IMG/VR virus record: IMGVR_UViG_3300042346_000870
Location: 1 to 49,041 of that record
Origin: a virus
Lineage: Duplodnaviria; Caudoviricetes
Strand: one strand, 5' to 3'
DNA: 49,041 nucleotides
A program made the translations under genes and the position numbers. Below the pieces are notes generated by a model. That model made no database searches, was not told where the DNA came from, and saw only the letters and a list, made by a program, of their open reading frames with translations. Of the stretch, positions 1,603 through 36,575 are shown in pieces (within the stretch, counting starts at the first letter, position 1; the number at the start of each line of letters is the position of its first letter).

Positions 1603-2340
1603 ATGAAAATCATTCCTAATTATCATGACTACTCTGTAAAACTAGAGAATAAATATCAAGATGAATTATTGGCGTTGTTAGGTATATTGCTAGTACAGCT
1701 AAATGATGTTAAAACCCTTACGCCTGATGTTATAGACCAAATTATAAAACAGTGGAGGTTGCAACATTGGGAAGATCTAAATGCTATAAACAAATCAACA
1801 TTAATTAATTTAGATAGTTATATTAATAAAATTATAACCTCCCCAAAACTTGCAGTAATCCCTTTTACATCCAAAATAAAAGAGGTGTTGGCTAATTTAA
1901 TAAAAAAGTCACAGGTAGAATCACAAAACGCTGAATTAATTGTAAAACTATTTGATGCTAACAATCAGATGCTTAATATAACTATTGATTATATAGAGTC
2001 AAAATACAAAGAGCTATCAGTGTTAGAAAATACATATAACTATGATAAAGAGCAAAGTAATTTATTTTTAAATGAGTTGGCTCAATCTGTAGAGCATAAA
2101 ATAATTACATTTGTCACGCAATCTACAATAAACAACATGCGAGAATTATTATTTACTACAGCTAAACAACAAAAATATACCGAATATTATTGGCATACGC
2201 AACGTGATAAGCGTGTTAGACCTAGCCACGCAGCAATGGACGGCAATTGGTTTAGACTAGATGACAGAAGCCCTCAACCAGCTAAGTATCAACCTGGCGA
2301 GGATTATGGTTGCCGATGCTATAGTTCAATGTTTAGGTAA
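1603..2340 (+). CDS. Minor head protein, Mu gpF / SPP1 gp7 family
   Basis: C-terminal WHTQRDKRVRPSHAAMDG...PGEDYGCRC signature. Confidence 0.85.
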   Translation: MKIIPNYHDYSVKLENKYQDELLALLGILLVQLNDVKTLTPDVIDQIIKQWRLQHWEDLNAINKSTLINLDSYINKIITSPKLAVIPFTSKIKEVLANLIKKSQVESQNAELIVKLFDANNQMLNITIDYIESKYKELSVLENTYNYDKEQSNLFLNELAQSVEHKIITFVTQSTINNMRELLFTTAKQQKYTEYYWHTQRDKRVRPSHAAMDGNWFRLDDRSPQPAKYQPGEDYGCRCYSSMFR

Positions 2341-2365
2341 AAATAAAAATAAAATAAAAATATAT

Positions 2366-2395
2366 TTGCTTTTATACAATAACTTATGGTAAGAT
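2366..2395 (+). promoter_or_regulatory. Sigma70-like promoter for the head genes
   Basis: TTGCTT-N18-TAAGAT with TG extension in an AT-rich intergenic gap. Confidence 0.45.
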
Positions 2396-2429
2396 TATCC
2401 CAATAATTATATATAACTATTATTTCAAC

Positions 2430-2444
2430 ACGCAGTGATTGCGA
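2430..2444 (+). promoter_or_regulatory. 15-nt hairpin motif ACGCAGTGATTGCGA (copy 1)
   Basis: Exact copy at 17474-17488; both lie 15-16 nt upstream of a structural gene start. Confidence 0.65.
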
Positions 2445-2460
2445 GTAGAAAGTCCTAAAA

Positions 2461-3639
2461 TTGGCAGCCAATTACATTAAGCACGACCGTGAAGTTCCAA
2501 TGGAACATCTTACAAAATACGGTAAGTTTGCTACTCATGATTTAGAAGTACCTGTTTTATTAGCGTATGAGTTAGGAACTATACCTGATAAAAACGGTAC
2601 AATGGTAAAGATAGATAAAAACTTTATTAATACTTTATTAAAATTAACTAATGAGTATATTCACAAAAAACATAAAAACCCCTTTGCTATATTTAAAAAA
2701 TCTTGGAATACGCCAGTTGACCAAGCCCGTTCGATTCCTTTAATTAAAAATCACGATACTAGCGATGTAGATAACACCGCAGGACATATAAGAGGATTAT
2801 TATATACTGAAGAAGTTGAGGGGATATTGTCACTTTGGGGTACTGCAGTAATTACTCAAATTGAAGATAAAATCGCTGCTGAGAGCGGTAAATTAAACAC
2901 TACATCTCTTGGTACTCGTGCAGATGGTTCAATAAAAGAAGTAAGTTTTGTTATAAACGAAGCAATACAGCATGGTGGATTAGCTATGTCAGAATTTGTA
3001 GAACCTTCTCAACAAATACCTACCCATGCACCAAGTCAAGAAGAAATAGCATTATCCGAACAAATTCAAAATTTGCAACTAGAAGAACATCAACTAACTA
3101 CAATCACAATCCCTAATCATATTACATTATCAAGAATGATAAGAACAGGACGTATAGAACCTTGGAAATATGACGACCTAATCAAACAAAACCCCGAAGT
3201 ATTACAGCTTATGGAACATGCTATGCCTAGCAATAAACTTGGTATAGTGTATGGTACAAATATGTCTCCTCAAAAAATTAATCCTAAAGATGCATCTGAC
3301 GCAGTCATTGAAAAAGCATTGGTTAAGCATAATGCTAGAACTGGCAAAACATCATCTAAAGATATAGAATCTAAAATAAAAGAACAAGAAATTATTAGAC
3401 AAGGTCATTCTTTCGAGGAGGTAAGAAAAAAAGAGTTAGAACATATTTTAGAACTGGCAGAGTATTCACCAGAAGTAGCTAGAAAATATATAGCTGTGGA
3501 ATTAGGAGAATCAATTACAACCCCAGAATATCAAGATAAGTATTTAACTGAATATCTTAACAAATCCAAAGAACTTAAACAGAAATTAAATAACTTACAA
3601 ATTCAATTAGGAGAGTTTAAAAATGACACAATTATCTGA
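2461..3639 (+). CDS. Prohead protease with C-terminal scaffold region
   Basis: PLIKNHD (His), TSLG (Ser), IKEVSFV motifs of HK97/Mu I-like proteases; helical charged C-terminal half; position before the capsid gene. Confidence 0.7.
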   Translation: MAANYIKHDREVPMEHLTKYGKFATHDLEVPVLLAYELGTIPDKNGTMVKIDKNFINTLLKLTNEYIHKKHKNPFAIFKKSWNTPVDQARSIPLIKNHDTSDVDNTAGHIRGLLYTEEVEGILSLWGTAVITQIEDKIAAESGKLNTTSLGTRADGSIKEVSFVINEAIQHGGLAMSEFVEPSQQIPTHAPSQEEIALSEQIQNLQLEEHQLTTITIPNHITLSRMIRTGRIEPWKYDDLIKQNPEVLQLMEHAMPSNKLGIVYGTNMSPQKINPKDASDAVIEKALVKHNARTGKTSSKDIESKIKEQEIIRQGHSFEEVRKKELEHILELAEYSPEVARKYIAVELGESITTPEYQDKYLTEYLNKSKELKQKLNNLQIQLGEFKNDTII

Positions 3640-3922
3640 GCGTGCAAAAGCCATAATTATAGAAATAGAAATGGGCGAAGAAGATGCTCGTAAAAAAGAA
3701 AAAGAGAAAGAAGCAGAATTTGCTAAAAAAGAAAAAGAGCTAAACGAAAAAAAAGAAGCTAAGAAAAAAGAAGAAGAAAAAGAGTTCGGAGAAAAGTTTG
3801 GCAAATACTTCGGGGAACATTCCAAAGATATGAATGATAGAATGTGCGCTCTTGAAGAATCAATGAAATCTGTTGTTGCTATGTCTGAAAAGATGATGGC
3901 AAGTAAAAAAGAAGGAGAATAA
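3623..3922 (+). CDS. Highly charged scaffold or internal head protein
   Basis: 99 aa, K/E-rich coiled coil, strong RBS (AGGAG), between protease and capsid genes. Confidence 0.55.
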   Translation: MTQLSERAKAIIIEIEMGEEDARKKEKEKEAEFAKKEKELNEKKEAKKKEEEKEFGEKFGKYFGEHSKDMNDRMCALEESMKSVVAMSEKMMASKKEGE

Positions 3923-3924
3923 TT

Positions 3925-4491
3925 ATGTATCAACCATTAGACGCAGAAACACTATCTTATGCATCAGTATATAATATAGTACCGTGGACTAAACAAGGCA
4001 CAGCATTTTTAGTAGGTGGTTCATTTACTACAGTATCTGGACAACCTAGTTTACAATTATTAGCAAGTTCTAATACAACTCAAGGATATTTTAATGGTCA
4101 GATGTTAGCTAGAGCTAGTGGTGTTAAAGCTGATGCTTCTCCATCAGGGTTAACCGCTGGAGCATTAATTAACTTTTCTCCTACTTCTCCAAGTGGTGAC
4201 ACAGGTCAAATAATTTGGAATGGTATGATTATTATAGACCCTGCATTAAAACAACCGTTGCCATTACTAGACCCAGTTACAGGTAACCCTTTTGTATATC
4301 CAGGAACTATTCAAGTTGCATCACAAATGCAAGGGTGGGTAATTCGTCAACAGTATTTATATTGTTCTGGTACTCCTGCAACCGATGCTATATTGGTGGA
4401 TACGGCTGTTACAACTACTACTGCTGTACGTACTTTACAATCTCAAACTATGAATTCTAGCAATGCGTTAGAAACTATTTTTGCATATTAA
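3925..4491 (+). CDS. Putative head decoration protein
   Basis: Small, T/A/G/P-rich beta-type protein immediately upstream of the major capsid gene (lambda D position). Confidence 0.5.
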   Translation: MYQPLDAETLSYASVYNIVPWTKQGTAFLVGGSFTTVSGQPSLQLLASSNTTQGYFNGQMLARASGVKADASPSGLTAGALINFSPTSPSGDTGQIIWNGMIIIDPALKQPLPLLDPVTGNPFVYPGTIQVASQMQGWVIRQQYLYCSGTPATDAILVDTAVTTTTAVRTLQSQTMNSSNALETIFAY

Positions 4492-4504
4492 AAAGGATAC
4501 AAAA

Positions 4505-5941
4505 ATGCAACATACAATGTCAGGAAGTTATGACGCTAATGCTGTTATGCCTGTCCAATTTAAAACAAATATAGCTAAAGAGCAGCAAGAAATTGTTGAA
4601 AGATGTTTAGAATTTGGCGAAGCATTAAAAGTAGAACCAAGTTTATCTGGTAAAACAGATAAATTACAAAAATTAGCACAAGGTTTAGAATTTAGCGAAT
4701 CAACAATTGGGAAATTAGCACAAGATTTGGAATTCAGTGAATCAACAATTGGGAATATCCAGTTGGCTTCTACTGATGTGACTACTCCATTTGTGGGTAA
4801 CTGGACAGCTGGTACTTTAAATATGTTAATCCAAGAGGTTGGTTCAAGCTTAGAAAAAGATACATTATTGTCTATGGCATTCCCAGATAAAGCAATTCCA
4901 ATGTATAAAGTTATTTTAGACCGTATTGTTGGTAATACAGGTATTGCACCTGAATTTGGGGGTAACAACTCTACATTACCAACAATTAGACCTTTAGATA
5001 CTTATGTGTTAGAGTATCAACCAGGGTTATGGGGCGGACGCATTTCGTTATCTGCTCAAGATATTATGTTTGCTAGAAAACGAGGTAATGTAACTCTTGA
5101 TGATAGAGGAATTGGACAGTTAGTTGCTTATAATACTGTTAATGGTGTTACTCAAGTAATGACTCGTAAAAAATATTTATTAAACCAAGCTATTTTCAAT
5201 AATGGATTTAGTTACAATGGTGCTACTATCAATTCAAACATTCCAAGTGGTAACTATGTTGCTATGTATGAATCAATGGGTACATTAAATGCGGACGGTT
5301 CTGTAACATATTCAAGCAGTGACCCATATTACACTCCATTTATTGCTATCACAAACATTCTTAACAATCCTATATTTTTAAAATATCGTAGATATATTCG
5401 TGGTATTGTTTGTAATGGTGCGGATTTACAAGCAATGATGAATCACCCTAATGTTAAAGCTGTAACTAATCTTATGATGGCTGCGGGTACTTCTTTGGGT
5501 AGCAAAAAATTATCAGTACAAGTTGGCGATATGGTAAAAGAACTTAATGCATACTATGCACCTAGTTTTGAATTCCCATTGTTAGCTGATGATGATGTTT
5601 GGGTACAACAAAATGCTGATGGTACTACTAAAACTACACCAAATAATGCTACAAATGCAACTAGTGCGCAACAATTTTTTGTTCCTCGTGGCAAAATGTA
5701 TGTAATGTTAGATTTAACTTCAATGGGTGGGCAAAATGGTGCATTCCATTTAACATATAATCAAATTGACCCTAATCAAGACGCTCCAGCAATGGGATTA
5801 TTTACTGGTGTGTTTAATCGTAATTTAAATAACTCAGACCAAGTAAATAGAATTGATATAGCTGTAGCATTGAGTGGCGCACCTGCAATATATATGCCAG
5901 AATCACAATTTATCTTGACTGGATTATTTTCGAACGTATAA
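4505..5941 (+). CDS. Major capsid protein (HK97 fold, lambda gpE-like); likely start ATG 4505
   Basis: Size, position after protease/scaffold/decoration genes, C-terminal FVPRGK...SGAPAIYMPE pattern; RBS AAGGA before 4505. Confidence 0.75.
   Translation: MQHTMSGSYDANAVMPVQFKTNIAKEQQEIVERCLEFGEALKVEPSLSGKTDKLQKLAQGLEFSESTIGKLAQDLEFSESTIGNIQLASTDVTTPFVGNWTAGTLNMLIQEVGSSLEKDTLLSMAFPDKAIPMYKVILDRIVGNTGIAPEFGGNNSTLPTIRPLDTYVLEYQPGLWGGRISLSAQDIMFARKRGNVTLDDRGIGQLVAYNTVNGVTQVMTRKKYLLNQAIFNNGFSYNGATINSNIPSGNYVAMYESMGTLNADGSVTYSSSDPYYTPFIAITNILNNPIFLKYRRYIRGIVCNGADLQAMMNHPNVKAVTNLMMAAGTSLGSKKLSVQVGDMVKELNAYYAPSFEFPLLADDDVWVQQNADGTTKTTPNNATNATSAQQFFVPRGKMYVMLDLTSMGGQNGAFHLTYNQIDPNQDAPAMGLFTGVFNRNLNNSDQVNRIDIAVALSGAPAIYMPESQFILTGLFSNV
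4670..4753 (+). repeat. 42-bp tandem duplication in the capsid gene (KLAQ[G/D]LEFSESTIG x2)
   Basis: Units 4670-4711 and 4712-4753, four differences, three synonymous. Confidence 0.95.
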
Positions 5942-5953
5942 TAGGATAATAAA

Positions 5954-6529
5954 ATGGCAGTTCTCCCTTCTCCACAGTATATTGATTATACTGAAAACGT
6001 ATTGCCATTAATTGGCACAGATAAGATATTAGTAAGTGATTCTGACTCAACTGGTATACCAACTTTAGAAGCGGACCAATTAATTGCTTCTGGTGAAAGT
6101 ATAGTACTTGAGGATTTATCACCTTATTATGTTACTGTGCCTGCATTAATTACAACTACTGGGGGTACTTGGGAAAACTTGCCTGCACAAACGTATTCTT
6201 TTATTTACAACATGTTTGTATATCAAGCAGCTGTACAATTAATCAGAGCATTTATAGAACGTAATACTGATGCAGTGCATACTTTAAGCAGTTACGTAGA
6301 TTATTACGATATGCAGTATGCACGTCATTTAAATAGAATGGTTGACTTATTGCCTAACGGCGCATATAAATATCAGCTAATTGGGTTACAACCATTAAAT
6401 ACAGGAATCCCACGCACCCCAGCATCATATGCCCGCACTGGTCGTATTGGAGGTGCTAATAACTATGTTGGTGGACAATTAACCAATCCTCAACGCAATT
6501 TTGCTAATGGCATATGGAGATGGTGGTAA
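5954..6529 (+). CDS. Putative head-tail adaptor (Mu gp36-like position)
   Basis: Helical protein directly after the capsid gene; assignment by position and composition. Confidence 0.45.
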   Translation: MAVLPSPQYIDYTENVLPLIGTDKILVSDSDSTGIPTLEADQLIASGESIVLEDLSPYYVTVPALITTTGGTWENLPAQTYSFIYNMFVYQAAVQLIRAFIERNTDAVHTLSSYVDYYDMQYARHLNRMVDLLPNGAYKYQLIGLQPLNTGIPRTPASYARTGRIGGANNYVGGQLTNPQRNFANGIWRWW

Positions 6530-8049
6530 TGGCTAGACAATTAAAAACATTAGTAAAAGATACCAAACAAAAAATTGTATCAGTTCATAAGCCAAAACCC
6601 AGGTTTGAAATATCTAGCGTTATAGATGAATTCCAGGGTATGAATGAAAATCTAATCGTAAATGATGGATATTCAAACATTGACGGTACATCTAATCCTT
6701 ATCAATTCAATTTATTTTCGGATTTAATAACTAATCCTTCATCTGTAAGCATTAGTGAATTCCAAAAAATGGTATATACCCAACCTATCATAGCAACTGG
6801 ATTAACCGTATTAATTAATCTTGTAATTAATGAGATTGGTCCATATCATCATAAAAATAAAAAACACGAAGAATTTATTCAAAATATGATTGATAACTTT
6901 ACTCGTCCTTTTCATGATATTTTAAAAGATATGTTAACTGCTATTTGGGCTGGTTTTTCAATGGGTGAAAAACGATATGGCAGTGATGGTAGATATGTAA
7001 CAGTTTTAGATATAGAGCCACGTCCTGCATCTTCTATTATATTTAGAGTTGATTCACAAGGACATTTAAAAGATGACGGGATAATACAATATTACTTTAA
7101 TAATCTATGGACTGGTTACGGTAATTTATTAGCATTTAATCAAGTTGGAGCAGACGGTAAACAACAACCTAATCCATATGCTAGTCGTGGTGATTTTGAT
7201 TATCCATGGCGTACTGTATGGGCGCAACCAATAGGTACAATAATGATACCTAAAAATAAATGTGTGCATTTTGTATATAAAGGTTTAGATGGTTTAACTT
7301 CACCTTATGGTAGAAGTTTATTAAGAGCAATCTATAATTATTATTTAGCACAAACTCAAATGCTAGGCACTACCCTTAATGCTGCTAATTCTGCGGCACA
7401 ACCTATTCCTGTGATTGTTATAGATCCAAACCAAACAACTTTGGCAGATGGCACAAATGTATTAGATGATATAGGGAATCAATTAGAACAAATGAAAAGC
7501 CCTGGGGGGGCTAATTATTTATTAATGGCTGGTAAAAAAGAAAGTATTATAATTGATAAATTAAATACTGCAATTGATTTAGATAAATTTGTAAATGTTA
7601 GTAATTATTACGATAAATTAATGTTAACTGGCGTATTATTCCCAGGAGAATTAGCAGGATTATCAGACAAAGGAAGTTACGCATTGGGTAAGACCCAACA
7701 AGATTTGTTAGGGCGAAATGTAGCATCAATTGTTGATTCGTTAAAATCATGTTTAATACAACAATTAGTAAAACCATTATTAGAATTAAATTTTAATGAA
7801 AAAGACGATTTTGGTAGTTTTGGTGAAAATGAAAACGTTGCAGAGGATATATCATTAAATTTAGATAAAATTAATGCATTAAGATACGAAGGTATAAAAC
7901 TAAAACCAGAGGCTATTATGGGCATGATGGATATTTCAATGGATTCTGTAGAGTCTTTTAATAATCCTATAATAGATACTAACCCACCCGAAACAAACAA
8001 CGGGGTGAATGCTAATTTTAGTCGTGCTATGAATAGTCAAGGTAGATAA
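6529..8049 (+). CDS. Portal protein, Mu gp29/DUF935-like (likely start 6529)
   Basis: AIWAGFSMGE, SPYGRSLLRAIY, GSYALGKTQ, QQLVKPLLELNF motifs; about 500 aa; TAATG overlap. Confidence 0.85.
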   Translation: MARQLKTLVKDTKQKIVSVHKPKPRFEISSVIDEFQGMNENLIVNDGYSNIDGTSNPYQFNLFSDLITNPSSVSISEFQKMVYTQPIIATGLTVLINLVINEIGPYHHKNKKHEEFIQNMIDNFTRPFHDILKDMLTAIWAGFSMGEKRYGSDGRYVTVLDIEPRPASSIIFRVDSQGHLKDDGIIQYYFNNLWTGYGNLLAFNQVGADGKQQPNPYASRGDFDYPWRTVWAQPIGTIMIPKNKCVHFVYKGLDGLTSPYGRSLLRAIYNYYLAQTQMLGTTLNAANSAAQPIPVIVIDPNQTTLADGTNVLDDIGNQLEQMKSPGGANYLLMAGKKESIIIDKLNTAIDLDKFVNVSNYYDKLMLTGVLFPGELAGLSDKGSYALGKTQQDLLGRNVASIVDSLKSCLIQQLVKPLLELNFNEKDDFGSFGENENVAEDISLNLDKINALRYEGIKLKPEAIMGMMDISMDSVESFNNPIIDTNPPETNNGVNANFSRAMNSQGR

Positions 8050-12503: not shown

Positions 12504-13235
12504 ATGTCAAAATATAATTTTTTATTAACAGCTCCTACAGCATGGAGCAATTCAGTAAAATATAAAGTTCAAGCTGTTGCATTGGCAGCGGCTATTGGTG
12601 GCACATATGTATCATGTCCCGTGGTAACAGATGTAGGAATTACTTATTATGCATCAAATCCAGCAAATCAACCAACATTAGGAACTGCTCCCGCTAGTGA
12701 TGATGCGTGGTTAGTTTTAGGTGGGGAAAGTACGGCAGAAACTCTTGCGACTCCATTAACTGGGTTTGTGGCTACTTCTGGTACTCCAACTGCTACTAGC
12801 ACTATTCTACAATCTTTTAATAATATAGTATACCGTACTTATGCAGAAGTAGCAGGGATTGCTGTAACTGGAATAGCAAATGGCGTAATACCGTTTACAG
12901 GAAGCACTAATGCATCTTCTAGTAATATTACGGTTACCACTAATACTGGGGTAATTGCTTTGCCTTTAAATAAGATTTTTAAAGTTCAAGCATTTTTGTA
13001 TGTTACTTCCGCAGCAACTTCAGGCACTACATTAACAATTACTTCTACAAATTCTACTGTATTAAAAACTAATGTAGTAAGTATCGGCGCAGATGTAACA
13101 TCTGGAATTGTAATATTAAATGCTTATGTACAAACAACAGGAACAGCGGCACCTACAGTATCAATTACTGCTTCGGCAACTACTGGTACAGTATCAACTA
13201 CAGCTGAATCTACAATTACTATTGACGCGCAATAA
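12504..13235 (+). CDS. Short fibre or decoration-like structural protein
   Basis: T/A/S/G-rich; LTGFVATSGTPTATSTILQSFNNI fibre-type segment; beta-sandwich-like C-terminus. Confidence 0.4.
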   Translation: MSKYNFLLTAPTAWSNSVKYKVQAVALAAAIGGTYVSCPVVTDVGITYYASNPANQPTLGTAPASDDAWLVLGGESTAETLATPLTGFVATSGTPTATSTILQSFNNIVYRTYAEVAGIAVTGIANGVIPFTGSTNASSSNITVTTNTGVIALPLNKIFKVQAFLYVTSAATSGTTLTITSTNSTVLKTNVVSIGADVTSGIVILNAYVQTTGTAAPTVSITASATTGTVSTTAESTITIDAQ

Positions 13236-13249
13236 AGGAAGTATAGAAC

Positions 13250-13873
13250 ATGGATAAACAAAAAGTCATCGATGCAGTTAATAATATTCGTAATGTTCCT
13301 ATAGCAGATTTAAAAAAGGATCTGGTAGAAAACTCTAGCGGTACTAATTTTAAAGCATTAGCCCAATATAATGCTATGTTAGATAATATTACCATTGGAG
13401 CGCAGACAACGACTACTATTAATTATGCTGGTATAGATTGGACATTAAGATTATTAACGGCGGAAGAATATGTAAAAATCCGTATAGAAATGAACAATGA
13501 ATGCAAAAAGCATGAATGCTTCGATGACTTTTTTACCCATTATAACGGAATGACTAAAATATTAGCAAAAGCATTAACTCCATCACCATTTAAAACGGAA
13601 GGTAAAGCTTTATTTACAGAAGCAGATTTACGATTGATGAATTATGATGTATTGGATGCTTTATATATTCAATATGTGGAATTTACCCAATTAGCCACAC
13701 AAAAACCTACTGAATTTACTGCCGAAGAAGTTGATGCAATGGTGACTATTGCAAAAAAAAAGCCCGAACTTTTGAGGGAATACGCGCGTCCGAAATTGTT
13801 ACAAACAGCTCTTTGGTTTTTGAACTCATCACTACAGCTGGAGAAGATGCTAAAATTAGACACGAACAGCTAG
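13250..13873 (+). CDS. Tail assembly chaperone (G); -1 frameshift product (GT) ends at 13929
   Basis: Position before the tape measure; A AAA AAG at 13756-13762; -1 frame open for 55 codons to TAA 13927-13929. Confidence 0.8.
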   Translation: MDKQKVIDAVNNIRNVPIADLKKDLVENSSGTNFKALAQYNAMLDNITIGAQTTTTINYAGIDWTLRLLTAEEYVKIRIEMNNECKKHECFDDFFTHYNGMTKILAKALTPSPFKTEGKALFTEADLRLMNYDVLDALYIQYVEFTQLATQKPTEFTAEEVDAMVTIAKKKPELLREYARPKLLQTALWFLNSSLQLEKMLKLDTNS

Positions 13874-13915
13874 TATTTTTTAAATTATTAATCAATCGAA
13901 TTAGGCAAGAGTTAG

Positions 13916-15658
13916 ATGGCAGACCATAAAATAGATATTCAATTTAGCGGTAGTGGTTCAGGAATGGGTACAGGTGGTCCTGATTCCTCATTACAATTTT
14001 TAGCTAGTATATTAACTAAATTAAATGCTACTTTAGATAAATTGACTATTGCATCTAATAAAGTAGTACCAGGAGGTAGCACATCACAACCTCCAAAATT
14101 TTCACCATATGATATAAATAGTCAACCTTTCAAATCTACCACTAATGATTTTAGCAAAGCTGTAAATGATTTTAGCAAAGATTTAGAAAATACTTTTAAA
14201 GATTTAGGCAAAAAAGTAGGTTCCACATTAACTACTAGTGTAATGGCAGCTGTAGGAGTTACCGCATATAGACTGATTAGTAATGAAACTAATGCTATTA
14301 TGGGACAAGCGCAAACTACAGGACAATTTGGTGTTGCATCTATTCAAGGTAATGCTAATCAACAATTCGGTAATTATATTGGCAATTTATTTGATATAGA
14401 GAAAAATAGACAAATCCAACACAATTCAGCCGAAGCAGAAGGAATAGGTGGTGGAATAGGGGGTGCTGTATCAAGTATAGGAACGATAATTAAAGGCATT
14501 CCTGTAATTGGCGGAGTAGGAAGGTTAATAGAAAAAGGGGGGTTAGCTCTTGGTGCTGCTGGCGCTGCAACTGGTGGATATGCTGCTGCTAAATTAGCTA
14601 ATGCACAAATAGAACAACAGATGGCTATACGTTCGGCATTAGCTCAACGTGACGCTATGGCATCAGTAAGCGAATGGAAAACTGGGTTTAGTAGATTTGG
14701 ATTATCTAGGACAAATTACCAAATAGCAGGAAGTGATATAACGGGAGGTACGCCAATTTCAGCATCACTATCTGATGCATTTCAACAAAAATATGGACAA
14801 TCTCAGAATTATAACGCTATTTTAAATAACATAACGCCATATTTACAATCTAGCCCATTAGACAATAAACAAACAGGGGATTTAAATAAGACTTCTCAAA
14901 ATTTTTTAAAAGCTGGGTTTGCAGCACAAGATTTTGCAAGGCTTACTATACAAGCTAGTCAATATCAAGCATTAACAGGTAAAAACATACAAGGATTTTC
15001 AGAAGATATAAAACAAGCTAGGTCCAAGTTTGGTGATGTATTTGATAGCAGTGCTTCTCAGAATCAAATAAATTTAATGGCTATGGGTTATAATAAAAAC
15101 CAAGCCCAAAATATGGCATTTCAAGCTCAATATAATTCTAGCATTTTAGGTTCAGCAAATCAATTTATGTCACAAAGTATTCCAGATTGGTATAAAAACC
15201 AAGCTATTGGTAAAGCAGTTGGATTTGACATTAATAAAAGTTTACAAACTGGTCATATTGCAGGAGCAAGTAAAGAAACTGAAAAAGAATTAAATAGAGA
15301 ATTACAAGCTTTTGAAAATGGAGTAGACCCATTAAGTTTACCCAAATTAACGTTATTAATGGGTTCGGGAGTAATGAATCCATCAAAATTAGCCGAATTA
15401 ACCCGTAAACAAATAGAGCCATTATCAAATACCGTTAACGAAAAAAGTTCATTATCTCCTGCGCAATCTATGGGACAAGATATTGTAAATACAATTCAAA
15501 ATGGATTGACAAATGTTAATACTATGAATGTCACAGCTCAAAGTATTAATATAACAGGAAATATTAATACTTCACATAACACTCAACGTAATGAAGGTGG
15601 TGCAGTTATGACTATGCCACCGAATGCGCATACTGCATCGCATTCGGCGGGAAAGTAA
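13916..15658 (+). CDS. Tape measure protein
   Basis: 580 aa, A/G/Q-rich helical, hydrophobic Gly-Ala segments, follows the chaperone. Confidence 0.85.
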   Translation: MADHKIDIQFSGSGSGMGTGGPDSSLQFLASILTKLNATLDKLTIASNKVVPGGSTSQPPKFSPYDINSQPFKSTTNDFSKAVNDFSKDLENTFKDLGKKVGSTLTTSVMAAVGVTAYRLISNETNAIMGQAQTTGQFGVASIQGNANQQFGNYIGNLFDIEKNRQIQHNSAEAEGIGGGIGGAVSSIGTIIKGIPVIGGVGRLIEKGGLALGAAGAATGGYAAAKLANAQIEQQMAIRSALAQRDAMASVSEWKTGFSRFGLSRTNYQIAGSDITGGTPISASLSDAFQQKYGQSQNYNAILNNITPYLQSSPLDNKQTGDLNKTSQNFLKAGFAAQDFARLTIQASQYQALTGKNIQGFSEDIKQARSKFGDVFDSSASQNQINLMAMGYNKNQAQNMAFQAQYNSSILGSANQFMSQSIPDWYKNQAIGKAVGFDINKSLQTGHIAGASKETEKELNRELQAFENGVDPLSLPKLTLLMGSGVMNPSKLAELTRKQIEPLSNTVNEKSSLSPAQSMGQDIVNTIQNGLTNVNTMNVTAQSINITGNINTSHNTQRNEGGAVMTMPPNAHTASHSAGK

Positions 15659-15697
15659 TACCGCAATATATAGAAAATTCCATATCTCGTATTGCGG
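15649..15697 (+). promoter_or_regulatory. Predicted -1 programmed ribosomal frameshift signal (G GGA AAG, 5-nt spacer, stem-loop)
   Basis: Heptamer occupies the last TMP codons; CCGCAATA 15661-15668 pairs with TATTGCGG 15690-15697; -1 frame is the transglycosylase frame. Confidence 0.7.
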
Positions 15698-16053
15698 CTA
15701 TGGTAGGAATAAATAGAAATGCCTTAGAAAGAGTAATATTTAATGAGAGCCGTGGCAATCCATATGTAGGAATGGATAAAAGTAATTATTCAGCTGGGAT
15801 AGCTCAGATAAGCAGGACAGTATGGAAGACATACAGTAAATTACCGTATGAAGAATCGGCAAATGCTAAATATTATGAACAAAATATTACAATTGCTGCA
15901 CAGTATTTAAAAATGTTATATAATAGGTTTGGTAATTGGAAAGAAGCATTGCAAGCTTATAATGTAGGTCCTACAGCATTAACACAAATAAAAGCAGGAT
16001 TACGAAAATTACCAAAAATTACCCAACGATATACCCAGAATTTTAAAGGATAG
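15655..16053 (+). CDS. Lytic transglycosylase (SLT) domain, probably made as a TMP fusion (track start 15700)
   Basis: Catalytic ES motif IFNESRGNP, AGIAQI, ALQAYNVGP; frame open upstream of ATG 15700. Confidence 0.85.
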   Translation, partial: VIPQYIENSISRIAAMVGINRNALERVIFNESRGNPYVGMDKSNYSAGIAQISRTVWKTYSKLPYEESANAKYYEQNITIAAQYLKMLYNRFGNWKEALQAYNVGPTALTQIKAGLRKLPKITQRYTQNFKG

Positions 16054-16057
16054 ATTT

Positions 16058-17425
16058 ATGCGCAATATAAGTATCAAGATTTATCCAAGATTAAACACTA
16101 GAGATATTCAATATTATTTTACTTCCGATAATGTGTTAAATGATTTACCCAAATTTGATGCAACAGATATTAATCCTGATGTAAGTAGTTTGTATCAATT
16201 TGTAAATATGTCATTAAATTATTCTATTCAATCATCAAATATAACTAGTAGCATAGTATTATCATTAAATACAACTCTTGCAGGTGGAAATACTATTAGG
16301 TCAGGTCAATATATAGAAATAACGGATAACGGCAGATTTATATTTCAGGGTGTAATGTTATCTTGTCAATATCAACAAACTTTGGTAGGTAATAATAGTA
16401 TTGGTGGCATATATTTAATGGCAACAATAGTGCCATCTTTATATCAATTAACTTTATTACCAATGCTGTTTGATTCAATCCAGAAGTCCCAAATAGATGG
16501 ATTATTGGGAATTGATACAACTAGTATTTTAGTAGGAGAAGTAGCGCAACAAATATCTACGCAAACTTTATTAGATTATATGATCACCAATACTGATTAT
16601 CAAACTTTTTTTAAAAGAGCAATTAGAGCATCTGGTTTACCTGAAAACGTATTTTTAATGGCTACATCTGGACAAAATAGGGATTCAGTTTTACGAACTA
16701 GTATAGATTTTACCAATACTGTATTATTTCAAAAAGAAAATGGAGAAATAAACATAAGGCAATTAGATGCTAAAATAAAAGCTCCTTTTAATATTAATAT
16801 TGGTGACAGATTTGATATAGAAAGCGGAATATATCCTAATGTATTGGAATTTACATATTTAGATAATGCCGCAGTAACCCCTGCTGTAGTAAACAGTTAT
16901 TCTATATTAACACCTAACTTAAGTGTGTCAGCTGATACACAAAGTAATTTTATTAGTTATAAACCTAACCCTAAATTCTTTTTACGAGTTAAACAATTAC
17001 AAGATACTGGATGGTTTAGTGGGCAAATTAATCATACGCCAATTAATACTAACATAGTACAAGATCCTACAATTAGGACTATATTATCTGGGGTTCAAAC
17101 AATTCCTGATCAATATATGCTAAGTTCAGCTCAATCTGGGGCTAAACAAGATTACATAACTTCATACCAACAATTAATGCTCGGTAAGACAATGGGGCAA
17201 GCATTAACTGGGTATGCTGGATTAGAATGCTTAATATCTATAGATGATAAATATTTAGAAAATGTAGATACCCAAGATTTATTGGGTACATGTGTAGATA
17301 TTTTAAACTGTGATATGGCAAGTGGGATTATAGCCACATATAATCGAAGCTATTCATTAGATGGAAGTTATATATCTTTAAATATTGTACCTCTCGGAAG
17401 TTGTACAGGATATTGGACTAATTAA
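16058..17425 (+). CDS. Putative baseplate hub protein (Mu gp44-like)
   Basis: 455 aa after TMP/SLT; GQYIEITDNGRFIFQG and LFQKENGEINIR patterns. Confidence 0.55.
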   Translation: MRNISIKIYPRLNTRDIQYYFTSDNVLNDLPKFDATDINPDVSSLYQFVNMSLNYSIQSSNITSSIVLSLNTTLAGGNTIRSGQYIEITDNGRFIFQGVMLSCQYQQTLVGNNSIGGIYLMATIVPSLYQLTLLPMLFDSIQKSQIDGLLGIDTTSILVGEVAQQISTQTLLDYMITNTDYQTFFKRAIRASGLPENVFLMATSGQNRDSVLRTSIDFTNTVLFQKENGEINIRQLDAKIKAPFNINIGDRFDIESGIYPNVLEFTYLDNAAVTPAVVNSYSILTPNLSVSADTQSNFISYKPNPKFFLRVKQLQDTGWFSGQINHTPINTNIVQDPTIRTILSGVQTIPDQYMLSSAQSGAKQDYITSYQQLMLGKTMGQALTGYAGLECLISIDDKYLENVDTQDLLGTCVDILNCDMASGIIATYNRSYSLDGSYISLNIVPLGSCTGYWTN

Positions 17426-17427
17426 AA

Positions 17428-17456
17428 TTGCATATTAGTTAAAAATATGTTAAAAT
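17428..17456 (+). promoter_or_regulatory. Sigma70-like promoter for the baseplate and fibre genes
   Basis: TTGCAT-N17-TAAAAT with TG extension. Confidence 0.5.
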
Positions 17457-17473
17457 AAAGCAAAATATTTAAT

Positions 17474-17488
17474 ACGCAGTGATTGCGA
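17474..17488 (+). promoter_or_regulatory. 15-nt hairpin motif ACGCAGTGATTGCGA (copy 2)
   Basis: Identical to 2430-2444. Confidence 0.65.
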
Positions 17489-17503
17489 ATGGAATAGGTA
17501 ATA

Positions 17504-17869
17504 ATGATAACAAGGTCGCCTTTAATTGCTAATGGTGAATTAGCATTAAATTCTAGCGGGGATTTAGTCTCTGCTCCTGATATACAAACTCAACTGGCAG
17601 TATCTTTAACTGCTTATAATTGTATTTATGACTACAGCATTAATAGTCTATTAATTACTTATCTATTTAGCATTCCTCCTGGTGGGATTCAACAAAATAC
17701 AATAAAAAATATTATTGTATCTGCATATCAAATTCTTATTACTGCAAATATTATAACTGATTTAGCAATAGCTATAATACCAGTTACTCAAAATTATATA
17801 ACAATTAAAATTAGAGCCGTTGATACTAACGGACAAAATGTAAGTTTGACGTGGGATAATGCACAATGA
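17504..17869 (+). CDS. Baseplate wedge / sheath initiator (gp25 / Mu gp46-like)
   Basis: 121 aa, ELALNSSGDL N-terminus, directly before the J-like gene. Confidence 0.6.
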   Translation: MITRSPLIANGELALNSSGDLVSAPDIQTQLAVSLTAYNCIYDYSINSLLITYLFSIPPGGIQQNTIKNIIVSAYQILITANIITDLAIAIIPVTQNYITIKIRAVDTNGQNVSLTWDNAQ

Positions 17870-19122
17870 ATAATAACTCAATTACAATAGCAAGCTTAAA
17901 AAGTCAATATCAGACTTATTTACAACCAGAAAATTCATCAATTAATGCGTTTGCTCCTAATTCATTTTGGGATATTGACGCAGGTGCAATGGCAGCAATA
18001 TTATTAGACTTATATATGAATCTGCAAACAGTACAGAATTCAATATATCCTCAATATGCAGTTGGTGATCAGGTTGACCAATGGTTGTACTCTCGTGGAT
18101 TAGTAGCACGTATTGGTGCTACTTATGGGATTGCTTATTGTTTTATCGATAGCACTACTCCAACTACTATAGAACAAGGAACAATCTTTGCAAATTCAAG
18201 TACCCAATTTCAGACGCTATCCACTGTTACAGTCCCTAATGGTTCAACCTTAGTTGCATTATATACTTTAACTGCTGGTACAGGTGTAGTACTTCCAACA
18301 GGTGCGCAATTAAATTTAACATCAACAACAACTGCACAAACCGCAGTAATACAGAATGTAGCAAGTGGGCAATTAGAAGAATCAGACCAAAGTTGTATAA
18401 CAAGAATTTTACAATCAATTAGAGTTCCACAGGCTGGTGCAAGAACTACTGATTATTTCCAGTTTGCATTACAAGCAGATACTCAGGTTACTTTTGCAAT
18501 AATATTACCATCTTTTATTATAGTAAGTGGAGTAGGACAATTAGGGGTATTTCCATTGATTGGTTCATCAATTACACCATATGATTTAGACCAAGGGTTA
18601 GCATCTGGAGTATATATACCTTACACAAGGGAAGCAGATATTACCGTTTTAGATAAAGTGCGAGATTATATAAATAGCCAAAGATTAGTAGGTTTGACAG
18701 TGGATGTATTCCCATGTGAAACTTATACAATATCACCATTTGAAGTGCAAATATCGTTAGCTATAGGGTATGAATTATCTACGCTAATAACAATAAATAC
18801 TCAAACTATTGGCTTTGAACCTACAACAGCTGTTTTTACTGTTGAGCAATTGGTTAAGCGTCAAGTAAGAAGTGCTATATGTAATCAACAATTTGGTGCT
18901 ACTAATATAAATAATACTCAAAATTATATAACCATTGATAGTTTACTATATTCATTGAATCAGGATTTATCAGCATTAAACGGAAGTATTGCGCAAATAT
19001 TAACTAATGCTGTATTCTCCATTGGAGATATTGCAGTTCCTAATCAAGATGCATTTAATAATAAAATACAATATACTTACGATGTAGCAGCATATAGTTC
19101 AATTTCGGTAGTATTAGCATGA
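17866..19122 (+). CDS. Baseplate J-like protein (Mu gp47)
   Basis: YPQYAVGDQVDQW..RGLVAR and GQLEESDQ...RIL...AGARTTDY motifs. Confidence 0.85.
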   Translation: MNNNSITIASLKSQYQTYLQPENSSINAFAPNSFWDIDAGAMAAILLDLYMNLQTVQNSIYPQYAVGDQVDQWLYSRGLVARIGATYGIAYCFIDSTTPTTIEQGTIFANSSTQFQTLSTVTVPNGSTLVALYTLTAGTGVVLPTGAQLNLTSTTTAQTAVIQNVASGQLEESDQSCITRILQSIRVPQAGARTTDYFQFALQADTQVTFAIILPSFIIVSGVGQLGVFPLIGSSITPYDLDQGLASGVYIPYTREADITVLDKVRDYINSQRLVGLTVDVFPCETYTISPFEVQISLAIGYELSTLITINTQTIGFEPTTAVFTVEQLVKRQVRSAICNQQFGATNINNTQNYITIDSLLYSLNQDLSALNGSIAQILTNAVFSIGDIAVPNQDAFNNKIQYTYDVAAYSSISVVLA

Positions 19123-20096
19123 CGCAATTGCAAACTACTGTAAATGTATTACCATTAGTTGGGAATGCTACAAAAGCATTTTTTACTGTTATACTAAATG
19201 ATAACAGTCTTAATACAGTAACCATAACTAATAGTTATATTTTATACGGTAATGCAAATTTAATAGCTTTAGATGTATTTATACCAATGGATAACAATCC
19301 ATTGGCAATAGCTTTAACTGGTACATACAATGGAGTTACTTATTTTGAGATATTATATACAAAAGCTATTTATGGACAAAGTACACCAGATAACTACACT
19401 AGATTAGTACAAAAAATTCCATTAGGTATATTTAATGAAATAACCCCAAAAAATGTAATAGGGCAGATATTAACTGCCAAATCAAAAAGTATTAATGATT
19501 ATTATCAAGAATATTTTAATGTGCAATCACAAGTGTATTCTGATACTTATTCTACACAATTAGAATTTCAATATAATGGAACTATAGGATTATTAAGTAA
19601 TAGTGTTTATGTAAACCAATTATTCCAAATATTATCATCAAAAAATATTGTAGCTTTAAATTCTTATAGTTTGGAATTGTTTGTAAGTAAGTATATCTAT
19701 TATAGATTAGGAACTATTTCTGCTGTGTATATAGATGATGGTACTAATAGTTCATCTGGATATTGGAACCTCGGAGTACCTGGAAATACTGAATTAGGAA
19801 CTACAACAATTCTAGCTCCTTACAATCCAGCATTACAAAATATGGTTTGGACTATATTTAATTCTGGTACTTTTACTGATGAATTCCAAGCAGAGATATC
19901 TCAGTTAATTATTAATATGAGTAGAGCAGATGTGGGGAATCCTGTTATATTTAACCCAGAAGCAGACCCAGTTGCAGCAGGGTTCACTTCAGTTGGTCCT
20001 ACATATCCTACAGACCCTAGAACATATTTTAATAAATGTATAAAATATATAGGGGATAATGCATATCCTCTAAATATTATTGGTTATTACAAATAA
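19119..20096 (+). CDS. Baseplate wedge protein (Mu gp48 position)
   Basis: ATGA overlap with the J-like gene; position before the fibre gene. Confidence 0.5.
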   Translation: MTQLQTTVNVLPLVGNATKAFFTVILNDNSLNTVTITNSYILYGNANLIALDVFIPMDNNPLAIALTGTYNGVTYFEILYTKAIYGQSTPDNYTRLVQKIPLGIFNEITPKNVIGQILTAKSKSINDYYQEYFNVQSQVYSDTYSTQLEFQYNGTIGLLSNSVYVNQLFQILSSKNIVALNSYSLELFVSKYIYYRLGTISAVYIDDGTNSSSGYWNLGVPGNTELGTTTILAPYNPALQNMVWTIFNSGTFTDEFQAEISQLIINMSRADVGNPVIFNPEADPVAAGFTSVGPTYPTDPRTYFNKCIKYIGDNAYPLNIIGYYK

Positions 20097-20108
20097 GGAG
20101 CATAATAA

Positions 20109-21206
20109 ATGTCTAACAACCAACAATCACAATGGGTTAACGGTCAAGTAGTAAATGCTACACAAATGACTGCATTAACTCAAGACCTATATAATAAATT
20201 AACATTTATAACCCAAAATTATAAACCTTGTATTTTATATTTAGCAGGAGATATTACACAGGTAGATAATAATATAACTATACCTGACGGTGCATTTAGA
20301 TTTGAAGATTCGGATAATAGTGCAACTCTACAATACAATACAGGTATATTTGGTAATGCACAAGGTACAACATTAGCAGTTACAGGTGATGGTTATATAG
20401 TTGCCAGATATGTATTGAATCCTACAATCCCCAATCAATATAATTACACATTTGCAACATCTTATGTATTTGTAGCTACTCCAATTGCTGATACTGATGT
20501 AGTAATATGTGTAATTACTGCAGGAATAATATCTCAAAAATCGGGAATATTTCCTTACCAAGATATTACTGACAATCATACTAATGGTAACGTAATTATT
20601 GGTGGCAGAGTTGTTAATTCTGTAAATAATATTAAAACTTTAAATGATGAGGGCAAAGAATCAGGGTTGGTTACAACTAATGATGGCAATTATTTATATG
20701 TTACTGAGCCAGATGGTGAAACTATCAATACAGCTGTTGTAAATCAATATGGATATAGACTATATAGCGGTGGTACAGCAACAGCAATATTGGACCCAGC
20801 AAATACATTTGCTTATGTATCAGAATTGCCAGTTGCAAATAATTTTATTAAAGTAAAGACTACAGGAACTGCTGATTTATTTAATTTTGGTATGACATTG
20901 CACGCTGTATATAATGGTAGTATATGGGGATGTACCTTATCAGGTTCTACTGGCAATATATCCGCTACTAATAATGTGTTATATGCATTATATGATTTAA
21001 ATGCTACATTTGGTATATCAGGAATTTCTATTGCTGCTGGTTCTGCATCGTCTGAAGCAAACGGAGATGCGTCATCTGCGATAAGGTATGCAAAAGTAAG
21101 CGCACAAAGTACAAATCTGGACGTAAATGCTGTTTATGTTAATGGTACAATAAATAATGGAACTGCATTTTTTTCGATAACATTTATTGCAACAACTGTA
21201 TCATAA
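20109..21206 (+). CDS. Tail fibre protein
   Basis: Position after the wedge genes; WVNGQVV..TQM N-terminal anchor; beta-rich. Confidence 0.6.
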   Translation: MSNNQQSQWVNGQVVNATQMTALTQDLYNKLTFITQNYKPCILYLAGDITQVDNNITIPDGAFRFEDSDNSATLQYNTGIFGNAQGTTLAVTGDGYIVARYVLNPTIPNQYNYTFATSYVFVATPIADTDVVICVITAGIISQKSGIFPYQDITDNHTNGNVIIGGRVVNSVNNIKTLNDEGKESGLVTTNDGNYLYVTEPDGETINTAVVNQYGYRLYSGGTATAILDPANTFAYVSELPVANNFIKVKTTGTADLFNFGMTLHAVYNGSIWGCTLSGSTGNISATNNVLYALYDLNATFGISGISIAAGSASSEANGDASSAIRYAKVSAQSTNLDVNAVYVNGTINNGTAFFSITFIATTVS

Positions 21207-21216
21207 GGGAAACAAT

Positions 21217-21432
21217 ATGCAATCAGGGTACTATTTAACAATAACAAATAATAAAATATATATTTTACTGAGTCATGATAATGAACCATTAAAAGCTGAT
21301 GATGATTCTTGGTATAGAATAAAAATTACACAAGATGATTACAATATGTATTTACAAGCACTAAAAGATAAAAAAGAAATATATATCGATGATGACGGTA
21401 AAATCCAAATACGATATAAATTAGAGGAATAG
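21217..21432 (+). CDS. Putative tail fibre assembly protein (likely start 21217)
   Basis: IKITQDDYNMYL...IYIDDDGK pattern; follows the fibre gene; RBS AAGGGA. Confidence 0.5.
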   Translation: MQSGYYLTITNNKIYILLSHDNEPLKADDDSWYRIKITQDDYNMYLQALKDKKEIYIDDDGKIQIRYKLEE

Positions 21433-21441
21433 GATACTGTA

Positions 21442-22164
21442 ATGGCAAATCCTTTAGCAATTATAAATAGTCTAAATGAAGTAGCATATTTAGCTGGGTT
21501 ATTTAATTGGCAGATGTCTGATGGAAGTTATACTAATCCAGATGGTAGTTTGACTTGTTCATTTCATATAGTTAAATTAGCTAATTCAATACCTTTAGCA
21601 CAATATGTTAGTGGGGGTATAGATGCATATAATTTAATTGCTGGACCAAGTAAAACCGATCCAAACCAACAATTATTCAACACTCAAATAGCAGCTACAG
21701 GTATTAAAGAAAATATAACTCGCAAATATACTGTAAATAGAATTCCATTTGCTAATTATGACCAACCCGTAGATTTAGGCACTGGAACTCAAAGAATAAC
21801 TTGTAATATATTATTTGCTGGCACTATGTACCAAACAGCAGTCCAGAATTTTCTACAATGTACATTTGGTCCACAATCTGGATTGGGTACATTAAACCAT
21901 CCATTTTATAATAAAATTGAAAAAGTATTGCCAGTTGAGTGTAATACTTTATATAGTTATGATTCATTGAATTTTGTAATGTGTGAAGTTACATTTGTAA
22001 CATCTAATTTATTACATTTAAGCCCTAGTAATATACAACGTTCTCCAGCTCAAAAAATTGCAACTGCATATCAAGCAACACAAGCAGCTTTGACTTCTGT
22101 AATTACTAGTGTAAATGTCATCAAATCCATGACTAGACAAATAGGAGCCTCAGTAGGGTTATGA
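21442..22164 (+). CDS. Mu gpN-like DNA circularisation / tube-initiator N-terminal domain protein
   Basis: RKYTVNRIPFANYDQPVDLG...ILFAG..Y...GTLNHP matches the DNA_circ_N pattern. Confidence 0.7.
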   Translation: MANPLAIINSLNEVAYLAGLFNWQMSDGSYTNPDGSLTCSFHIVKLANSIPLAQYVSGGIDAYNLIAGPSKTDPNQQLFNTQIAATGIKENITRKYTVNRIPFANYDQPVDLGTGTQRITCNILFAGTMYQTAVQNFLQCTFGPQSGLGTLNHPFYNKIEKVLPVECNTLYSYDSLNFVMCEVTFVTSNLLHLSPSNIQRSPAQKIATAYQATQAALTSVITSVNVIKSMTRQIGASVGL

Positions 22165-28914: not shown

Positions 28915-29337
28915 TCACCCTTTCAATATTTTACCATTTTGCAAATCTTTTAACGTTAATCCTCCAGTGTATTGTAAGTGTAACCATTCTTTAAACGTTT
29001 TCCAATCTCCTGCCCAATCAAGCCCGCATTTTTTACCTAAATTGCCACACAAAAATGTTATTAAGTTATCATCCCACATTGCTTTACCTTCAGAAATAAA
29101 GACAAAGTCAAACGCTAATCTATAATTGTGAAATGATTGTCCCCCTTTAGCATTAGTTACTTTCTTACCTGGTGTGGTCCTTCCTTGTGCATATAAAGCA
29201 TTCTGACTCGCATTGTCTCTGTATGTGCTAGTTATTTTTACTTCAATACCGCCTGTGTCTTTACATAACGCTATAAATTCCTCGCATTTAGTTTTTACAA
29301 TTGGGTGTAAATCGTCTATACTTCTTGAGTTAATCAT
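28915..29337 (-). CDS. Endolysin, M15 family L-Ala-D-Glu peptidase
   Basis: TSTYR...QNALYAQGRT..G.KVTNAKGGQSFHNYRLAFD...WAGDW...E.LHLQ. Confidence 0.9.
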   Translation of the reverse strand: MINSRSIDDLHPIVKTKCEEFIALCKDTGGIEVKITSTYRDNASQNALYAQGRTTPGKKVTNAKGGQSFHNYRLAFDFVFISEGKAMWDDNLITFLCGNLGKKCGLDWAGDWKTFKEWLHLQYTGGLTLKDLQNGKILKG

Positions 29338-36014: not shown

Positions 36015-36575
36015 TTATTTACTCTCCAAAATCTCAATTAATTTATCTATTTGTAGGTTAGATTGTTTTACTTCGGCATCATTATCATCAGCCTCATAAC
36101 CCACTGCCACAGCAGCATCACAAACAGCTCTAGCAGCAACACCACTTGAAAACCCATCATCTTGAACAGGAGCAATAATAACGCGATAAGCAGCAGAAAG
36201 AACATTCCTATTACCATAATAATTAATATCCATACCAGGGTTATTAGCTAAATTAGCATTATCAGCAGCCACTTCTAATTCTTTAATAGTTGCTTTACCA
36301 TCAATGTATAATTTTAGCGTATCAACTGCTTTAACACATCTTTTATCCTTCATGAGATGTTTAATTTCATTAACACACCACCACGTGTAATAATAACAAG
36401 TTTTTTTATCTAAAAATTTGCATGCAATCCAGTTTATATCTTGTAAATCTTTTTCTTTTACTTTATGTCGATACTCTTTCACAAAGTTAAGCAATGTATC
36501 TGAGTAATCAGTAGGAATTCCAATTCTTTTAGCATTACTAATTACATCAATTGCATCGTATGTTACTAATTTCAT
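36015..36575 (-). CDS. Hypothetical protein, tandem paralog B
   Basis: Shares both termini and core with 36576-37166. Confidence 0.8.
   Translation of the reverse strand: MKLVTYDAIDVISNAKRIGIPTDYSDTLLNFVKEYRHKVKEKDLQDINWIACKFLDKKTCYYYTWWCVNEIKHLMKDKRCVKAVDTLKLYIDGKATIKELEVAADNANLANNPGMDINYYGNRNVLSAAYRVIIAPVQDDGFSSGVAARAVCDAAVAVGYEADDNDAEVKQSNLQIDKLIEILESK

Follow-up and report, generated by a model that had tools for sequence, protein, structure and literature searches.

The heptamer G GGA AAG is the slippery motif of the lambda G/GT frameshift. It is also listed for HCTV-5 g-t, and frameshifting has further been described as a means of providing structural proteins with optional C-terminal domains, namely in gene 10 of T3/T7, in the capsid and tail of Lactobacillus phage A2 and in the Listeria phages A118, A500 and PSA (PMC5009743). 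So far as found, published phage frameshifts concern tail chaperones or Ig-like additions to abundant coat or tube proteins, and none of the lambda G/GT, A2, T3/T7 and Listeria cases in the excerpted part of PMC5009743 lies on a tape measure protein (TMP). Tape-measure genes do appear among the false positives of PRFect, where they were taken as mislabelled chaperones (PMC10885494).

Muralytic domains are known to occur in frame within TMPs, as in P1 Sit with its SLT domain (PMC9024508), the TM4 TMP and T5 pb2 (PMC6116005, PMC12617516), and the tail protein Tal of TP901-1/Tuc2009 is found in virions with and without its lytic domain (PMC11409707). The C-terminus of the lambda TMP lies at the baseplate end of the tail (PMC12617516). 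In the myophage A-1(L), six TMP chains fill the tube and three C-terminal helices bind the spike and hub, and the presence of six chains but three C-terminal ends at the hub in several tails has been ascribed to proteolysis or disorder (PMC12617516, PMC10966104). Laboratory growth often does not require virion lysins; on thickened walls these enzymes are useful (PMC6116005).

At the locus described here, a likely TMP gene is followed by an SLT domain in the -1 frame and, judging from the sequence, programmed -1 frameshifting at the end of the TMP gene very probably yields both a 580-aa TMP and a 712-aa TMP-SLT form.

Tail module and identity of its genes

The window (the whole stretch of DNA analysed, 49,041 nt or ~49 kb) is the sequence of an uncultured phage, has a G+C content of 31% and is contained in lake and freshwater metagenomes. 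Two RNA runs contained only 0.14-0.15 of the sequence words. Genes for terminase, portal, sheath and baseplate J are present. The tail module has the order sheath, tube, 243-aa gene, 207-aa gene, 580-aa gene, SLT frame, Mu gp44-like hub and baseplate genes, in which the 580-aa gene immediately follows a G/GT-type chaperone gene and precedes the hub (Table 1). The hub was recognized by an ESM Atlas structure match (TM 0.61/0.77 to a GpP-like/Gp44-like cluster). A separate endolysin-like gene is located at 28915-29337. No tRNA genes were found in the window or in six relative loci, and the region 13200-16300 lacks terminator-like sites and is not enriched in promoter-like ones. The TMP had no match among annotated phage genomes and no relative was found among GTDB genomes, so that neither a cultured model nor a host emerged for the phage. 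Three SLT matches in annotated phage genomes (29-35% identity) were set aside as unrelated; one of them, on inspection, belonged to a 1038-aa transglycosylase gene with different genomic surroundings.

Table 1. Features of the tail module around the junction of the TMP gene and the SLT frame
Feature	Position	Strand	Basis or remark
Likely tail assembly chaperone gene, 207 aa	13250..13873	+	Position before TMP
A9 run and -1 frame extension (58 codons) into TMP start	13753..13929	+	Likely G/GT-type recoding site
Likely TMP gene, 580 aa, short form	13916..15658	+	ORF, position, helical model, weak similarity
Slippery heptamer G GGA AAG (X XXY YYZ), last two TMP-frame codons	15649..15655	+	Sequence
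SLT lytic transglycosylase domain, -1 frame, 132 aa from junction	15655..16053	+	Pfam, model, folds
TMP stop TAA	15656..15658	+	Would be passed only after -1 shift (GTA = Val)
Predicted 3' stem-loop, 9-bp outer helix, likely frameshift stimulator	15661..15697	+	Folding
First SLT-frame ATG, unlikely true start	15700..15702	+	No SD pairing, poorly conserved, cuts helix
Predicted catalytic Glu (Glu31), N-E-S motif	15745..15747	+	8/8 aligned SLTs
Baseplate hub, Mu gp44/GpP-like fold	16058..17425	+	ESM Atlas structure match

The 580-aa protein is likely a TMP, an identity which, since neither Pfam nor PHROG provides a family-level match, we infer from its position, its helical model and a weak resemblance to TMP clusters. 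Its predicted structure is mostly helical, with the exception of residues 531-580, which are Pro/Ser-rich, have a pLDDT below 50 and are predicted to be disordered. Foldseek returned weak matches, mostly to TMPs or minor tail proteins and none at E≤0.001, while ESM Atlas feature matches of 0.90-0.91 to TMP_3 and PhageMin_Tail clusters comprised only 108-117 shared features.

The 207-aa gene upstream likewise has no Pfam or PHROG match, and a homologue of it is present in all loci that extend to it. The first-pass annotation had placed a frameshift in this gene as well. This stands in so far as the A9 run (13753-13761) is kept with an open and similar -1 frame in 8/8 relatives compared; on the other side, nine A's may mean that RNA polymerase slips here, and the zero frame of the gene also continues for 36 conserved codons. 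As the A9 site has the G/GT-type arrangement, two recoding sites would flank the TMP gene.

The SLT domain is a lytic transglycosylase by profile and lysozyme-like fold, its activity being predicted. It matches Pfam SLT PF01464 (E 9e-14, 51.5 bits against a cut-off of 21.3), and its predicted model (pLDDT 83) finds Slt70, T7 gp16 and MltD as the best PDB folds (probability 1.0, TM ~0.6, E only 0.02), with a PDB sequence search returning nothing at E≤1e-5. Glu31, at the end of predicted helix 21-31, is invariant in 8/8 aligned SLTs and is presumably catalytic by virtue of SLT family membership.

Junction of the TMP gene and the SLT frame

The TMP gene end reads G GGA AAG TAA, with the heptamer immediately 5' of the stop as first reported. 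The -1 frame stays open between 15595 and 16053, and 15700 is the position of its earliest ATG. The long product, estimated in the first-pass annotation at about 712 aa, was computed as 712 aa and 76.3 kDa, compared with 61.3 kDa for the short form. The probability of the heptamer is 0.023 given the residues A-G-K and the codon usage of the TMP gene. Residues 1-12 of the -1 frame from the junction are VIPQYIENSISR, with Val first (15655-15657) if the frame is entered by a shift and Met or Pro first if it is entered by a restart at ATA. The junction peptide proposed earlier for detection contains Lys, so trypsin would cleave there. A conserved 5' SD-like stimulator was not found (pairing of +1.9 to -9.5 kcal/mol across loci, none in the window).

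Relatives of the locus were gathered by scans as nine IMG/VR contigs and seven metagenome loci; the IMG/VR DNA set is regarded as saturated because three further scans gave the same nine contigs. After merging of near-identical copies and duplicates (L001-L003, L005-L007, L013 and L014 being counted as one with the window) and exclusion of L017, whose contig ends inside the TMP gene, ten loci including the window show the junction. Nine of these, again including the window, bear an SLT, and in all nine it lies in the -1 phase across a TMP stop with a shift motif at the TMP end, at 43-62% identity to the window for the SLT and 37-46% for the TMP. L015, the remaining locus, lacks SLT, motif and stem alike and continues into another gene, a loss which fits the frequent dispensability of virion lysins in the laboratory. 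The last two codons before the stop form the heptamers C CCA AAA in L008, C CCA AAC in L009, A AAA AAG in L018 and A AAA AAC in L019; L011 has A AAA AAC five codons 5' of the stop, and L010, L012 and L026 have GCA AAG one codon 5' of it. Hence the X XXY YYZ site that relatives were expected to conserve at the TMP stop is retained as a pattern and a phase in 9/9, but not as the letters GGGAAAG. In E. coli, which need not represent the host here, G_GGA_AAG, C_CCA_AAG and A_AAA_AAG are highly shift-prone, A_AAA_AAC and A_AAA_AAA are weaker shifters and NNA_AAG hexamers give low-level shifting (PMC5009743).

Among 132 other gene ends used as a control, a heptamer at the last codon occurred once and either motif within the last six codons 14 times, and the background inside TMP genes was 1.6% per codon. 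With the residues and codon usage of the individual locus taken as given, synonymous choice would produce the motif with a probability of 0.02-0.39 per locus and a product of 1.7e-8 over 8 lineages, so that protein constraint fails to explain the motif. These p-values are optimistic because the lineages are related and because the hexamer and the L011 site were recognized post hoc. Shared ancestry alone is also insufficient, since the letters of the motif have changed repeatedly while the pattern was kept.

At the protein level, 28 TMP homologues are all of 547-607 aa, with forms of up to 1015 aa being searchable, and an exhaustive search with a TMP profile yielded 41 representatives, 110-804 aa long. 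An SLT profile found a fused SLT in 0/54 TMP homologue records, some of which are fragments or repeats of loci, and a search for longer SLT-bearing proteins also gave none, which is weak evidence. Seventeen of the 28 homologues end in residues compatible with a last-codon heptamer (background 5.7%), and in 27 the last two codons could hold one or the other motif (background 15.5%), a test which overcalls, as the SLT-less P0012 also passes it. Two distant homologues (P0091 and P0092), seen as protein only, end in F-P-F, which is compatible with a U-type heptamer, the predicted form being C CCU UUN; P0018, P0088 and P0090 are expected to be devoid of either the SLT or the motif.

The hairpin reported 3' of the heptamer was recovered by folding: the stem 15661-15669/15689-15697 is the predicted minimum-energy helix and opens 5 nt after the heptamer, with a z-score that depends on the stretch folded (-3.7 for 15659-15700, -2.1 for 15656-15740 and -0.4 for 15640-15720). 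For the window, L008, L009 and L011, the helix that opens 4-9 nt past the motif (-10.5 to -15.5 kcal/mol) is more stable than those at each of 40 random positions; in the other five SLT-bearing loci it ranks at p 0.10-0.32. The combined p is 6e-5 over 8 lineages, which are related. Compared with shuffles, the stems of L010, L012, L018 and L019 are unremarkable (z -0.5 to 0) and that of L026 is fair. The covariation sought in this stem is weak, the window, L008 and L009 having one common helix with compensatory changes in which 4/10 pairs change on both sides (six sequences; 11/500 shuffles). A single hairpin common to all loci was rejected, as L018 and L019 break this helix; other loci use different hairpins and there is no one conserved structure. 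In L011 the hairpin lies 6 nt after the upstream heptamer and not after the stop, which supports that heptamer as the shift site.

Other explanations for the split reading frame

A free-standing small SLT protein, produced through termination-reinitiation (at TAATG, or at ATA in the window) or from a downstream start, is quite unlikely; under this reading the slippery-looking gene ends would reflect a Pro-x-Lys protein motif. An own start for the SLT, which the first-pass annotation had weighed against its frameshift, is absent in most loci, though 2/9 SLT-bearing loci (L008 and L018) have a TAATG stop-start overlap; the window and L009 have TAATA at that position. Upstream of the window's ATA the anti-SD pairing amounts to -5.5 kcal/mol. 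Of the 45 SLT relatives with gene calls, 14 begin at the junction position and another 5 where helix 1 starts; the Pro-x-Lys end, for its part, persists in the SLT-less L015. However, no ATG, GTG or TTG precedes helix 1 in six of the nine loci (window, L009, L010, L011, L012 and L026), L010, L011 and L012 have no start-like codon of any kind at the junction, and the TAATG loci retain perfect heptamers, so that restart cannot be the general route. A GTG is found at the start of helix 1 in 1/9. A quick TMP tree, open at its base and with SLT partners assigned by the length of their contigs, gave no order for the gain or loss of TAATG. As for the protein motif, synonymous choices favour the slippery form. 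The downstream ATG at 15700 is itself an unlikely start. As noted on first inspection, it has no clear SD (anti-SD pairing of +0.6 kcal/mol, where 19/21 ordinary starts are at -2.4 or lower), and starting there would remove the first SLT helix, which is predicted to span residues 4-17 from the junction with the ATG at residue 16. The PF01464 match begins 4 residues before this ATG, and only 1/8 aligned SLTs has Met in its column. The starts called in relatives fall inside helix 1 or later in 26/45 records, 8 of them past the catalytic Glu, which argues against an own start.

A real shift could also have as its main role to keep the dose of a toxic enzyme low, with the linker being cleaved and the SLT working apart from the TMP, at the baseplate or in the infected cell. 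The predicted disorder of residues 531-580, the cleavage of the lambda and T5 TMPs near their C-termini (PMC12617516) and the unequal strength of the motifs, which suggests that the exact ratio is loose (PMC5009743), are consistent with this reading, but a protease site was not found, lysins of virions frequently reside in the TMP (PMC6116005) and the window has its separate endolysin-like gene; we hold it to be very unlikely. RNA polymerase slippage, by which an added base would let a subset of mRNAs encode an in-frame fusion, finds some room in the A-rich sites of L018, L019 and L011 (six A's). It is extremely unlikely, given that the window, L008, L009, L010, L012 and L026 have only 3-4 consecutive A's, that efficient bacterial slippage needs runs of 9 A or T (PMC5009743), and that the motifs lie in codon phase, with 3' hairpins at the spacing expected for ribosomal shifting. 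In-frame TMP-SLT genes such as P1 Sit are common (PMC9024508), and such a gene could have been split by an error in assembly or by the recent gain or loss of one base. The first-pass annotation had asked for a check of this, and the contigs of 4/4 runs, each spanning the junction, have no inserted or missing letters, which refutes the error at the level of contigs, as opposed to raw reads, 3/4 runs not being flagged as a possible source of the window. The same -1 phase in 9/9 divergent loci, the lack of any fusion in the 54 TMP homologue records and the invariance of the catalytic Glu in the 8 aligned SLTs also speak against a lesion, which is almost certainly not the explanation.

Proposed mechanism and comparison with known systems

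Under programmed -1 frameshifting, ribosomes would pause between the stop and the hairpin, slip back one base, bypass the stop and continue into the SLT. On G GGA AAG this would involve tandem re-pairing of the Gly and Lys tRNAs, and in L010, L012 and L026 a single slip of the Lys tRNA on GCA AAG; the hairpin and the adjacent stop would raise the shift rate. The disordered TMP residues 531-580 could act as a linker to the SLT. The long form would be built into the tail so that its C-terminus lies at the baseplate hub, and the SLT would sit at the tail tip, as the TMP C-terminus is the baseplate end in lambda and A-1(L). On contraction, the long form would be ejected with the TMP and open the peptidoglycan locally. 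In the lineages with TAATG, free SLT may be made as well.

The stop is kept in all SLT-bearing loci, and selection therefore likely favours a mixture in which each tail has less than one enzyme domain per TMP chain. We infer that room at the hub may be limited, that a lower dose of a harmful enzyme may be favourable, or that a mixed virion population may be of use. If 10% of ribosomes shifted and chains were assembled at random, 47% of tails with six chains would by calculation contain an SLT. More tentatively, and in our view rather doubtfully, the frameshift could set the architecture of the tail tip by creating two types of TMP chain, with few enzyme-tipped chains at the hub, bet-hedged virions and two tandem sites tuning one operon.

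If frameshifting is confirmed, the shift rate would decide how many virions or chains carry a lysin. This would provide a genetic handle on the question of six TMP chains and three tips, and on the question of what restricts the benefit of virion lysins to certain host conditions. Gene callers truncate the SLTs, 26/45 records having a start within the domain, and annotation therefore fails to show such fusions; a shift motif at the TMP stop followed by a -1 frame enzyme is a pattern for which genomes can be screened.

In keeping with the first-pass annotation, which knew of no frameshift at the end of a TMP, none was found in the literature on tape measures, frameshifting and lysins, for the most part as represented by abstracts. 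The kind of arrangement, a frameshifted optional domain, is itself known, and the comparison suggests that what is new here is a likely TMP as the carrier and an enzyme as the cargo. As in lambda gpG/gpGT (PMC5009743), there is an X XXY YYZ site for a -1 shift in a tail operon, but here it terminates the TMP gene instead of preceding it, and the products would be parts of the virion, unlike the lambda chaperones. The lambda-like position is taken in the window by its own G/GT-type chaperone site (A9), 1.9 kb upstream of the TMP-end site. The T3/T7, A2 and Listeria cases share a slippery site close to where a structural gene ends, the keeping of both forms and the gain of a C-terminal domain by a fraction of the product. 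The carrier here, however, is likely a TMP of ~3-6 copies per virion as against hundreds of capsid or tube proteins, and the added domain is a predicted enzyme where those are Ig-like. P1 Sit, TM4 TMP and T5 pb2 likewise combine a TMP with a peptidoglycan-degrading domain, but there every chain bears it in frame, whereas here a stop separates the two and no fused homologue was found. Tal is similar in that one tail protein has two forms, with and without a wall-degrading C-terminal domain, and virions are potentially mixed. The Tal forms, however, arise by proteolysis of a tail-tip protein in siphophages of Gram-positive hosts, while those of the present phage are predicted to arise at translation, on a TMP and in a contractile tail.

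The doubly open stretch of the likely chaperone gene

Beyond the A9 run in the likely tail assembly chaperone gene, the zero frame remains open for 36 codons and the -1 frame for 55 (region of run and extension: window 13753–13929), and the same doubly open stretch follows the run in seven related loci (L008, L009, L010, L011, L012, L015, and L019). From sequence comparison, this stretch looks dual-coding, with both frames appearing conserved, and different C-termini would be expected for the short and long forms of the chaperone. The A-run is exactly nine in every relative compared, which is the length stated for RNA-polymerase slippage in PMC5009743.

Distant homologues of the likely tape measure protein

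Two distant homologues of the likely tape measure protein (TMP), P0091 and P0092, available as protein sequences alone, have the C-terminal residues F-P-F. A U-rich heptamer at the stop codon would fit such an ending, which suggests that the shift signal extends past the close family.

Neighboring genes

A small, highly charged gene (~55–65 aa) lies between the lytic-transglycosylase domain (SLT), or TMP, and the hub gene in four of 10 loci; none was detected anywhere in the window. In the region at window 16058–22164, no spike or tube-initiator gene was found between TMP and the gp46-like/J genes, and the gene order, with a "baseplate hub" match behind the fibre gene, is unusual.

Coordinates of the small charged gene and of the hub match
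Feature	Location	Remarks
Small charged gene	L015:5706–5903	
Small charged gene	L018:1111–1281	
Small charged gene	L010 and L012:6138–6302	
240-aa gene	window 21442–22164	PHROG "baseplate hub" match; follows fibre gene

In the head region (window 1603–8049), unassigned head genes have a head-morphogenesis gene before them and the portal gene (6514–8049) behind them, and the PHROGs comparison gave no match to a major capsid protein. Two paralogues of phrog_18326 (unknown function) occur in tandem on the minus strand (window 36015–37166). The phage tail segment of L001/L005 (100% identical) is located inside an IMG/VR record labelled as a giant-virus bin, which is probably a binning error.

The gene between tube and chaperone is variable, being 243 aa in the window (12504–13235), ~125 aa in L009 (2955–3329) and absent from L011; in this it resembles an exchangeable tail decoration.
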